Source: Acidimicrobiales bacterium (GTDB lineage: Bacteria; Actinomycetota; Acidimicrobiia; Acidimicrobiales; CADCSY01). Taken from it: 64,000 bases of DNA. The position numbers and the translations under genes were made by a program. Each line of letters begins with the position of its first letter. Position 1 is the stretch's first letter. Of this stretch, positions 24,731 through 25,684 are shown piece after piece. The DNA is taken from contig JAUJNB010000001.1 of assembly GCA_030446545.1 (NCBI GenBank), positions 280,885-344,884 of the forward strand, written 5' to 3'. The notes under the pieces were generated by a model. It made no database searches. It was not told the origin of the DNA and saw only the letters and a list, made by a program, of their open reading frames with translations.

Positions 24731-25684
24731 TCAATCGAAGGGGTTGAGGGCGCTGGCCACGCCCTTGCCCACGTCCAGCGCCCCGCCGGCGAAGTCGCCC
24801 ACGGCGTCGACGCCGTCGTTCCAGACCTCGGCGATCTCCTCGCGGTGGTTCCAGGCCTCCAGGCCCACCCACGCCACACCAGTCACGATCGTGGCGGCGG
24901 CGGTCACGGGGCTGGGCGCCACGAAGAAGGCGGTCGAGGACGCGCCGAACAGGGTGCCGGCCACGTCGGCGGCGTACTCGGTGCCCCGCGCCTCGAAGGC
25001 GTTGTGGGGAAGGCCCTGCTGGGCGAGGTCGGCGATGCCCACGCCGGTGGAGACCGCCCCTCCGGCGACTCCGAGACCCCTCACCGCCCCCGCCCGTTGG
25101 GCCAACGTGCGCAGTCCTCCCTGGCCCCGGGCCAGGAGGCTGGCATTTCGGGCGCTGCGCAGTCCGGCGATCCGGTCGCTCTTCAGCCACCGCAGCGCCC
25201 CAGGACCAAGGCGACGGGCAATGAGATGGGCCAGGCCACCGTTGGCCGTGGTCGGGGCCGGAGGCATTCGCACCTTGCTCCCGGGCTGCATGGCCTTCCA
25301 GTACTGGAAGAGATAGCCCGGCCCCCGAGCGGTGCGGGCCAGCCCCGCCGCTGCCCGTCCCCACGGCATGGTGCCGTCGTCGCCCCCGGTCCAGAAGTTG
25401 CCCACATCGCCCAGCACGAAATTGAGGATCTCGCGGGGCCAGCCGTGGGCGTCGGCCTGGCGCAGCATCTGGGCCCGTCTCGCCATGTCGTCGCCCACGG
25501 CCAAGAGCAGCTCGGCACTGGCCCACACGTCGTCGGGCACCGGCGAGGACTTCCCGGCCTCGGCCAGCAACCCGTCGATGGTGCCGGCCCGGACACCCAG
25601 GTCGACGGCGATGTCGGAGAGTCGGGCGGAGAGAAGCTCGACCGCATCGGGATCCATGAAGACCGACGTCATGGCCACCAGCAT
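24731..25684 (-). CDS. putative secreted effector with helical N-terminus and hydrophobic Gly/Ala-rich C-terminal region (paralog b)
   Basis: 317-aa ORF starting MLVAMTSVFMDPDAVELLSARLSDIAVDLG... The C-terminal part reads GLGVAGGAVSTGVGIADL..LFGASSTAFFVAPSPVTAAATIVTGVAWVGLEAWNHREEIAEVWNDGVDAV. Paralog at 31533..32515. N-terminal fragments at 21339..21395 and 27208..27312. Confidence 0.6.
   Translation of the reverse strand: MLVAMTSVFMDPDAVELLSARLSDIAVDLGVRAGTIDGLLAEAGKSSPVPDDVWASAELLLAVGDDMARRAQMLRQADAHGWPREILNFVLGDVGNFWTGGDDGTMPWGRAAAGLARTARGPGYLFQYWKAMQPGSKVRMPPAPTTANGGLAHLIARRLGPGALRWLKSDRIAGLRSARNASLLARGQGGLRTLAQRAGAVRGLGVAGGAVSTGVGIADLAQQGLPHNAFEARGTEYAADVAGTLFGASSTAFFVAPSPVTAAATIVTGVAWVGLEAWNHREEIAEVWNDGVDAVGDFAGGALDVGKGVASALNPFD

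Follow-up and report, generated by a model that had tools for sequence, protein, structure and literature searches.

A 64,000-nucleotide (nt) stretch of the Acidimicrobiales contig JAUJNB010000001.1 (positions 280,885 to 344,884), referred to here in its entirety as the window, carries an intact gene, effector a, whose product we judge, at slightly better than even confidence, to be a type VII-exported, EspG-chaperoned, membrane-inserting toxin. Effector a would be secreted by the EssC/EccC-type (type VII-like) ATPase encoded nearby and would consist of two parts, an exchangeable helical targeting head of ~85 amino acids (aa) and a conserved, all-helical C-terminal toxin module of ~230 aa. In the producing cell, an EspG-like protein would hold the hydrophobic effector soluble and export-competent, possibly with the help of a small WXG/PPE-like partner (27424-27804); once exported, the C-terminal hairpin would enter the membrane of the target cell and compromise it by pore formation or depolarization. 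Kin would be shielded by a linked gene that varies among lineages, the candidates being a DUF3093 membrane protein and/or a multicopy protein that we call GPHGP after its conserved motif. Finally, the locus presumably evolves through recombination among tandem cassettes, which would account for the orphan heads, chimeric genes and seven GPHGP copies found in the window. The sequences directly show an intact gene, its homologs, the shuffling of domains and the linkage of genes; export, chaperoning, toxicity, the membrane target and the choice of immunity gene are proposals drawn from them.

An earlier inspection of the window without database searches (the sequence-only reading) had grouped effector a with a second paralog, here paralog c, and with two orphan 5' ends into an effector family resembling membrane-depolarizing toxins. 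It had not recognized the EspG-like family, the GPHGP family or the modular shuffling of heads and tails.

One C-terminal domain behind many heads

A word-indexed search of 5.8 billion proteins returned ten relatives of effector a, none of which bears a name or a Pfam domain; six are near-full-length, intact homologs (69-90% identity) from other metagenomes. Likewise, no Pfam or NCBIfam model matched effector a even at E<=1, nor did any match its homologs. When the family profile was searched against 1.84 billion cluster representatives, 202 matches were obtained (157 at E<=1e-10), nearly all of them confined to profile positions ~180-310, and the matched domain is always C-terminal in proteins of 300-680 aa. 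The N-termini that precede it are diverse: among 111 that were scanned, WXG100 was found in 13, T7SS_signal in nine, WXG100_2 in four, PPE in two and RHS_repeat in one. In the last of these, Rhs protein P0074, the module begins directly after the ...DPVNWVDPMGL (DPxGL-type) end of the YD-repeat core. The head is exchanged as well. For example, residues 1-88 of effector a are shared with P0147, where they are followed by a lipase-like Abhydrolase_8 domain (E=3e-39), and a 315-aa protein of locus L082 joins an a-type head (52% identity, E=1e-21) to a c-type C-terminus. Because the same tail thus occurs with many heads and the same head with several tails, the effector a family has, judged by its domain order, a polymorphic-toxin architecture. 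In outline, the earlier proposal of an effector family is supported: the helical N-terminal part and the hydrophobic tail rich in Gly and Ala are those of a type VII-type effector family, which adjoins an EssC/EccC ATPase. No match to the C-terminal consensus was found in 72,556 plasmids (tblastn), and a literature search on the C-terminal domain family, T7SS_signal/PF21725 and DUF3093 found no paper on this domain. Locus L081 holds a 5'-truncated orphan of the domain.

The AlphaFold2 model of effector a, built from a 139-sequence alignment, is all-alpha with a mean predicted local distance difference test score (pLDDT) of 74, rising to 83-96 over residues 110-290. Its head is modeled as helices at 12-44 and 51-80, then 83-99 (pLDDT 65-80), a predicted arrangement that corresponds to the N-terminal helix-turn-helix hairpin (~100 residues) of type VII substrates. 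The C-terminal ~100 residues form three moderately hydrophobic helices of about 19-21 residues, rich in Gly, Ala, Ser and Thr (200-221, 238-256 and 259-278), which reach mean Kyte-Doolittle values of 1.26-1.55 over 19-residue stretches. They surround an (A/T)P.P turn (P257-x-P259) that is invariant in the C-terminal module; after it come a conserved H-(R/W)-(E/D) and a variable acidic tail, which in family members closes on an aromatic motif (LNPFD, GDWF or NPMNWF). Helices of sub-threshold hydrophobicity joined by a P-x-P turn, as in effector a, are typical of conditionally inserting hairpins. In many members (e.g., P0060, P0033, P0101 and P0145), a variable number of acidic (A/T)WD-x-(G/T)TD-type repeats follows the hydrophobic domain, and these repeat-bearing tails end in LNPFD, GDWF, NPMNWF or TFWD; an acidic repeat tail with an aromatic end could be a recognition tail.

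Genes linked to the C-terminal domain

Conserved tail peptides (8-sequence alignment), used to scan one genome per GTDB species, identified 77 loci in Streptomyces, Microbispora, Planotetraspora, Aeromicrobium, Frankia, Kribbella, Kineosporia and metagenome-assembled genomes of Acidimicrobiia, a sample biased toward the GAGYVAD / TAFLIAPNP subgroup. Linkage was counted with iterated hidden Markov models (HMMs) on the open reading frames (ORFs) of 80 sources, the window and 79 loci found in actinobacterial genomes or on metagenome contigs. An EspG-like gene is linked to the C-terminal domain in 73 of these 80 sources, a GPHGP gene in 42 and a gene for a DUF3093-like membrane protein in 16, and EccC lies within 6 kb of the domain in 22 of the 79 loci (tblastn).

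The assignment of the constant partner to EspG is based on profile similarity. The window member scores 26.7 bits against Pfam ESX-1_EspG (cutoff 27) over profile positions 20-243 of 245; the same model matches five of 20 family members over nearly its full length (best E=8.3e-12), and weak precomputed EspG matches exist for L082 and L083. No EspG entry was retrieved by the family profile from PDB sequences. For GPHGP, no Pfam, NCBIfam or PDB-sequence match was found and no transmembrane (TM) segment is predicted, indicating a soluble protein; the gene in the effector a cassette has homologs in third place in the cassettes of L001 and L002 (E 1e-7 to 1e-21) and of L082 (49-52% identity). The order effector, ~260-aa EspG-like protein, ~170-aa GPHGP is kept in all three of these loci, and a tight operon of effector, EspG-like, GPHGP and DUF3093-like genes is present in the Streptosporangiales genera Microbispora and Planotetraspora (e.g., L049 4981-8227). 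Since a one-TM protein takes the third position in Aeromicrobium and two tandem 175-aa genes lie between effector and EspG-like gene in L009, it is the EspG-like partner that stays constant and the other one that varies.

The downstream genes covary with the type of C-terminus. An a-type C-terminus is accompanied by EspG-like and GPHGP genes and a c-type C-terminus by DUF3093 and p232-like genes; in L018 and L082, a DUF3093 membrane gene directly follows the c-type C-terminus, and a p232-family gene follows in turn. The genes of the window are laid out alike, but the membrane ORF there is only weakly DUF3093-like. The membrane immunity protein proposed by the sequence-only reading has a candidate next to the c-type effectors of L018 and L082, a 2-TM DUF3093 protein. 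The downstream neighbors of effector a are the EspG-like gene and the soluble GPHGP gene, with no membrane protein among them; the nearest DUF3093-like gene (27900-28406) lies 2.2 kb upstream. Relative to L082, identity is 71% for the effector, 68% for the EspG-like protein and 49-52% for GPHGP, and relative to L001 and L002 it is 60-63% for the C-terminal domain (tblastn), 41-42% for the EspG-like protein and up to 34-37% for GPHGP (blastp). By these comparisons GPHGP diverges fastest among the cassette genes, as immunity genes often do, and its fast divergence and tandem arrays fit a candidate immunity gene.

Two further arrangements were seen among the loci. In L001 and L002 (the contigs of P0010 and P0009), complete effector/EspG-like/GPHGP cassettes lie far from any type VII gene and beside CRISPR-Cas, restriction-modification, PIN and PemK/Phd genes, and because of these neighbors they look like defense-island cargo; the L002 effector is split into ORFs of 134 and 226 aa. 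The Streptomyces loci (L019-L034, L060 and L072) often contain two or three C-terminal-domain genes, convergent around one GPHGP and one EspG-like gene and a few kb from EccC.

Cassettes, paralog c and decay in the window

The window has a GC content of ~72%, and nearly all genes from 20.4 to 38.1 kb lie on the minus strand in a cluster that starts at the 1414-aa ATPase and continues downstream as a mosaic of repeated genes (Table 1). This ATPase, 8 kb from effector a in the same strand cluster, matches Pfam FtsK_SpoIIIE (8e-37) and FHA (1e-14). It reaches 484 bits with the NCBIfam type VII EssC model (cutoff 778, E=1e-144) and 361 bits with EccCa (cutoff 509, E=2e-107); since both scores fall below the equivalog cutoffs, it is a divergent member of the EssC/EccC family.

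Table 1. Features of the window (GC3, GC content at third codon positions)
Feature	Position	Strand	Description
Effector a	24731-25684	-	Intact ATG-started ORF, 317 aa, GC3 0.89
Effector a, head	25433-25684	-	Residues 1-84
Effector a, middle region	25100-25432	-	Residues 85-195
Effector a, hydrophobic C-terminal domain and acidic tail	24734-25099	-	Residues 196-317, ending LNPFD
EspG-like putative chaperone	23926-24714	-	~262 aa, 16 nt downstream of effector a
GPHGP small soluble protein	23411-23911	-	Third gene of the effector a cassette; candidate immunity/accessory protein
GPHGP paralogs in tandem	25731-26135, 26247-26780, 26777-27217	-	Repeat families D1, D2; blastp to L001/L002; HMM
Orphan a-type head	27208-27312	-	34 codons, then stop; ATA for first ATG
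WXG/PPE-like helical small protein	27424-27804	+	WEG motif; divergent from orphan head 27208-27312
DUF3093-like membrane protein	27900-28406	-	168 aa, 2 predicted TM segments; candidate immunity protein
GPHGP paralogs	28403-28936, 29171-29695	-	Repeats D5, D7; HMM
EspG-like 3' fragment	28933-29130	-	Scar between GPHGP paralogs
DUF3093-like 5' fragment	29058-29315	-	Scar between GPHGP paralogs
p232-like N-terminal/EspG-like C-terminal chimera	29704-30909	-	401 aa
DUF3093-like membrane gene directly 3' of paralog c	30980-31521	-	Apparently split: 31165-31521 (118 aa, 2 TM), 30980-31168 (62 aa)
Paralog c	31533-32503	-	Broken by 1-nt deletion at ~31861; diverged from effector a
WXG100-like gene upstream of paralog c	32500-32849	-	ATG 32849
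p232-family protein	32953-33821	-	Frameshift between 33165 and 33087; positional analogue of EspG-like in c-type modules
EssC/EccC-family FtsK/SpoIIIE ATPase	33846-38090	-	1414 aa, intact, N-terminal FHA domain
Decayed cassette	20479-21395	-	Head 21339-21395, GPHGP fragment 21157-21357, EspG-like 3' fragment 20822-21151, GPHGP 20479-20997
TadE-like	17238-17636		Tad-type pilus genes, first flank
TadC-like	18634-19158	-	174 aa, T2SSF domain
TadB-like by position alone	19546-20388		No Pfam/NCBIfam match
CpaF/TadA-family ATPase	38103-40130		675 aa; other flank

Upstream of effector a, the plus-strand WXG/PPE-like gene gives matches to Pfam PPE (E=4e-4), EspB_PPE (1.8e-3) and WXG100 (0.015), and its product is 63% identical (E 1e-38) to those of similarly placed 118-aa genes beside the a-type cassettes of L081 and L082, the L082 copy matching YwqH-like at E=3e-4. 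It is a probable targeting partner of a-type heads. A minus-strand ORF at 27463-27762 was rejected as a real gene, because the plus-strand reading is conserved and matches models. The DUF3093-like protein encoded next to it has two hydrophobic peaks (mean Kyte-Doolittle 1.73) and belongs to the same HMM family as the 172-aa DUF3093 protein of L082 (E 1.7e-31).

Paralog c proved to be real but broken, and shorter than described. Its intact ortholog, P0142 (323 aa), is a single ORF that reads straight through the break point, so that a natural two-gene arrangement was rejected; because P0142 begins MSNDVVFVPEAMYEM, the start of paralog c is GTG 32503 rather than TTG 32515. The sequence-only reading had placed a frame break at 31841, and the frame is indeed interrupted, although the cause lies elsewhere: alignment with L080, the contig of P0142 (82% DNA identity), reveals an uncompensated 1-nt deletion at ~31861 (GAAG-TCCCC versus GAAGAAGCCC), and the TAG/GTG overlap at 31841 is, by this alignment, a consequence of the break and not its cause. 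With the deletion mended, paralog c reads FLKS followed by PGAGRVVTVAGRGLG, where the ortholog has FLKKPGLGRGLTVAGRVLG.

The C-terminal block said to be shared between effector a and paralog c was borne out both by BLASTP (34% identity over 87 aa, E=3e-6) and by the family profile, which matches the c ortholog at E=7.9e-14 and spans effector a residues 52-309. For the N-terminal region that the two were also said to share, the a-type head profile is collinear with residues 5-87 of paralog c in the register originally proposed, but the similarity is weak (8.2 bits, E=3e-4 in a two-sequence database; hhalign P=0.004, probability 8%), and BLASTP of the two proteins gave no in-register N-terminal match. 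The c-type C-terminus comprises only about 100 aa and lacks most of the polar positions of the a-type module.

Damage in this module extends beyond the effector. The small WXG-like gene reported ahead of paralog c is supported by weak but near-full-length matches (Pfam WXG100 E=0.03; NCBIfam TIGR03930 E=2.3e-4 over positions 4-86 of 90), and in comparison with L080 a 1-nt deletion at ~32512 abolishes its GTGA stop/start overlap with paralog c. The p232-family gene is likewise frameshifted, the 272-aa L082 query matching it in two pieces in frames -3 and -2 (tblastn). The DUF3093-like gene reported after paralog c has counterparts in L082 and L018 that pass the Pfam DUF3093 threshold (41.1 and 36.6 bits, cutoff 23), but the window ORF itself reaches only E=0.066, with TM peaks of 1.78 and 1.92, and is apparently split at ~31165. 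This split, judged by eye against the 172-aa L082 protein, is only probable, and joining the parts gave no better DUF3093 score. Module c thus contains three alignment-confirmed frameshifts (p232-like, WXG-like and effector c) in addition to the apparent DUF3093-like split, and paralog c together with its entire module is probably decaying. The frameshifts reflect either concerted decay or a local assembly error; real decay rather than random sequencing error can be argued because the adjacent 4.2-kb ATPase gene is intact, and assembly error stays possible because a TadC-like gene elsewhere in the window is possibly split (18634-19562, minus strand, where a domainless 143-aa ORF at 19131-19562 overlaps 18634-19158 by 28 nt in another frame).

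Both orphan 5' ends were placed exactly by the sequence-only reading. They share 79-90% DNA identity with the start region of effector a over 91-97 nt and are, from these alignments, genuine recombination scars. The orphan at 27312-27208 reads ILVAMTSVSMDPDAVELISAGHLEVAVELPGHWR and is 79% identical in DNA to 25599-25695; besides the mutated first start codon, it keeps intact the ATG at the position of effector a Met5, where homologs such as P0001 start. The orphan at 21395-21339 reads MLVAMKSVSMDPEWIQWP over 18 codons up to its stop and is fused at a duplicated GGATCC into the middle of a GPHGP gene, within a decayed cassette delineated from repeats D3, D4, D6 and D9, translations and HMM matches. 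Orphan heads are what the window retains; classical polymorphic toxin systems retain orphan C-termini. The 401-aa chimera matches the p232 HMM at 4e-77 and the EspG-like HMM at 2e-38, with blastp similarity to the L082 EspG-like protein spanning residues 256-396 only, which hints that the p232 and EspG-like families are related or recombining.

Other genes of the window were noted. Two plus-strand genes at 21461-23082 (256 and 307 aa, the N-terminus of one being lipoprotein-like) break the minus-strand cassette array and have homologs in two paired genes next to the L081 a-type cassette (31-36% identity, E 2e-10 and 1e-33), which suggests a conserved neighbor. A second candidate type VII effector (14353-15915, minus strand, 520 aa) combines T7SS_signal (E=2.4e-13, above the Pfam cutoff) with DUF2515 (E=2.4e-6) and is preceded by a minus-strand ORF of 94 aa with faint WXG100 similarity (15922-16206). 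Unlinked to the effector cassettes, a CHASE3-HAMP-SpoIIE (PP2C) phosphatase adjoins a HATPase_c_2 anti-sigma-type kinase (46320-48835, minus strand), and the two look like a partner-switching regulatory pair.

Alternatives, related systems and implications

Several observations weigh against a membrane-inserting type VII toxin. None of the WXG100, LXG, T7SS_signal, PE or PPE models matches effector a itself. Its residues 1-100 lack a YxxxD/E motif because they contain no tyrosine, and their sole WxG (W98-T99-G100, within a conserved GNFWxGG) lies past the third helix, where the toxin module starts; neither a WxG turn motif nor a YxxxD/E export motif was found inside the head. The hydropathy of the effector a helices (1.3-1.55) is below the classical TM threshold (~1.6). 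Foldseek searches of the model against the PDB and the viral BFVD gave no match better than E>1, and the PDB entries that ranked highest were unrelated membrane proteins and designed helical bundles. A profile search of PDB sequences returned no relative of the C-terminal domain, and no sequence or fold link to known pore-forming or depolarizing toxins, nor homology to any characterized toxin, was found for it. A soluble, cytoplasmic GPHGP would be an unexpected source of immunity to a toxin that strikes membranes from outside, and the Rhs fusion is just one case among the 111 scanned proteins. In addition, no EccB, EccD or mycosin gene or ESX-4-type core was recognized in the window, where Tad-type pilus genes flank the ATPase and all effector cassettes on both sides. 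Finally, the C-terminal domain is unusually well conserved (45-55% identity) across Actinomycetota classes, from Acidimicrobiia to Streptomyces, and its near-constant partnership with one chaperone-like gene would suit a housekeeping substrate as well.

The best-surviving alternative, which we consider unlikely, takes up this last point and holds that effector a is a non-toxic type VII substrate whose module is a membrane or envelope anchor, with the EspG-like protein as its dedicated chaperone and the downstream genes as assembly factors. Such a protein would be functionally nearer to PE/PPE or Esp proteins, or would be an accessory part of the secretion machinery. The conservation of the domain, the EspG-like gene adjoining it in 73 of 80 sources, its frequent position beside EccC, the PPE-like scores of some N-termini and the small partner are all consistent with this alternative, and the known mycobacterial clients of EspG are PE/PPE pairs, not antibacterial toxins. 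It accounts poorly, however, for the Rhs fusion, for a head held in common with a lipase-like Abhydrolase_8 protein and the shuffling of heads and C-termini, for the location of the L001 and L002 cassettes, remote from any type VII gene and next to genes of CRISPR, restriction-modification and toxin-antitoxin systems, for the multicopy arrays, orphans and decaying copies of the window, and for a third cassette gene that differs among lineages.

Less probable again is a type VII toxin with a cytoplasmic, non-membrane target, in which the conserved Y237, D240, E276 and H280-R281-E282 would constitute a site for catalysis or ligand binding, GPHGP would be cytoplasmic immunity and DUF3093 would have another role. 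The soluble, fast-evolving, multicopy GPHGP is tightly coupled to the a-type C-terminus and in these respects is like cytoplasmic immunity proteins such as EsaG (PMC9484751); the hydrophobicity of the helices below the TM threshold and an AlphaFold2 domain that is compact, confident and helical, rather than composed of isolated TM helices, point in the same direction. Nevertheless, no enzyme family or fold match was found, the Gly/Ala/Ser/Thr-rich composition with a Pro-x-Pro hairpin is typical of membrane-inserting hairpins, and the c-type C-terminus, with ~100 aa and few of these polar positions, is paired with a membrane protein. A decaying, non-functional island with no working effector, in which all similarities are leftovers, is highly improbable: the three confirmed frameshifts and apparent split of module c, the two orphan heads, the truncated EspG-like and GPHGP pieces and the chimera would suit it, but the effector a, EspG-like and GPHGP genes are intact, tightly spaced and high in GC3, intact effector a homologs (69-90%) occur elsewhere, L082 keeps the order GPHGP, effector, EspG-like, and the 1414-aa ATPase is intact.

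The nearest functional analogues are TspA-TsaI, TelE-TipE, EatA with its Tap partners and EatI, and the recombining esaG/tsaI arrays. TspA-TsaI of Staphylococcus aureus is a membrane-depolarizing toxin of a type VIIb secretion system with a membrane immunity protein (PMC7456083). The locus of effector a is like it in its helical N-terminal targeting region, hydrophobic C-terminal toxin domain, nearby EssC-type ATPase and polymorphism, and in candidate protection genes that occur in multiple non-identical tandem copies, one of them encoding a membrane protein. No sequence or fold similarity to TspA-TsaI was detected. Here the membrane protein among the candidates is not TsaI but a DUF3093 protein with 2 TM segments, the genes downstream of effector a encode an EspG-like and a soluble protein, the host belongs to the high-GC actinobacteria, and depolarization is only a proposed effect. 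TelE-TipE of Streptococcus gallolyticus includes an LXG pore-forming toxin with a C-terminal glycine zipper. Effector a resembles TelE as a small effector with a Gly-rich hydrophobic C-terminal helix (G205-x3-G209 ... G214-x-G216); unlike TelE, it has no LXG domain, and its module, much larger at ~230 aa, contains three hydrophobic helices.

Antibacterial type VII toxins in Actinomycetota were first demonstrated in 2026; their heads are helical, and they come with small partners and with immunity genes downstream (PMC13444075). In that study, EatA-TapA1/TapA2-EatI of Mycobacterium abscessus, an ESX-4 toxin with Tap partners, was accompanied by a survey of Tap-linked toxins across Actinomycetota, and 47% of the protein sequences in a survey of Tap-like genes in 946 M. 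abscessus strains had no predicted function (PMC13444075). Like EatA, effector a would be a type VII effector of an actinobacterium; its head is helical, its putative partners are small helical proteins, a candidate protective gene lies downstream, and payloads in the family are diverse, as are the EatA/Tap-linked payloads, many of which have no known function (PMC13444075). Unlike EatA, its payload is an unannotated hydrophobic helical module and not a glycoside hydrolase, an EspG-like gene is part of the cassette, the gene of the small partner is transcribed divergently, and ESX-4-type core genes were not recognized in the window. As in mycobacterial ESX systems with their PE/PPE-EspG pairs, a gene of the EspG family accompanies that of the presumed helical client, and some family members as well as the small partner score as PPE-like. 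Here, in contrast, effector a has no PE/PPE match, the EspG-like gene is present per cassette and not per secretion locus, and the clients, which are found outside Mycobacteriales (in Streptomyces, Microbispora, Aeromicrobium and Acidimicrobiia), end in a toxin-like module.

The tandem immunity arrays of esaG and tsaI in Bacillota evolve by homologous recombination that gives rise to deletions and chimeras (PMC9484751). The window resembles these arrays in its strings of non-identical paralogs, its seven GPHGP copies, its orphan heads and its chimeric EspG-like gene. It differs from them in involving other gene families in another phylum, in that whole cassettes were apparently duplicated and then partly deleted, and in that at least one junction uses only 6 bp of microhomology. 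By sequence, none of the TspA, TelE, EatA or esaG/tsaI systems appears homologous to the C-terminal tail studied here, and the papers that were found describe neither an EspG-like gene in each cassette nor the GPHGP family nor a link to DUF3093.

At less than even confidence, we propose the wider and more tentative view that these cassettes constitute an unnamed pan-Actinomycetota toxin system that combines a new membrane-inserting helical fold, type VII-like export, cassette-encoded EspG-type chaperones, and GPHGP and DUF3093 proteins in immunity or accessory roles. One payload is now defined, with clear domain boundaries, ~200 sequence clusters and a conserved cassette of three to four genes, and the window illustrates how such cassettes are duplicated, exchange heads and tails, and decay. 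The occurrence of the cassette in culturable Streptomyces, Microbispora, Planotetraspora and Aeromicrobium provides candidates for the chaperone, partner and immunity roles. If the proposal is true, the C-terminal module would represent a protein fold that is new and membrane-active, the GPHGP and DUF3093 families would gain a function, the first one for DUF3093, and EspG-type chaperones would serve the export of interbacterial toxins beyond mycobacteria, in Streptomyces, Streptosporangiales, Aeromicrobium and Acidimicrobiia, extending a pathway that has so far been tied to PE/PPE proteins.

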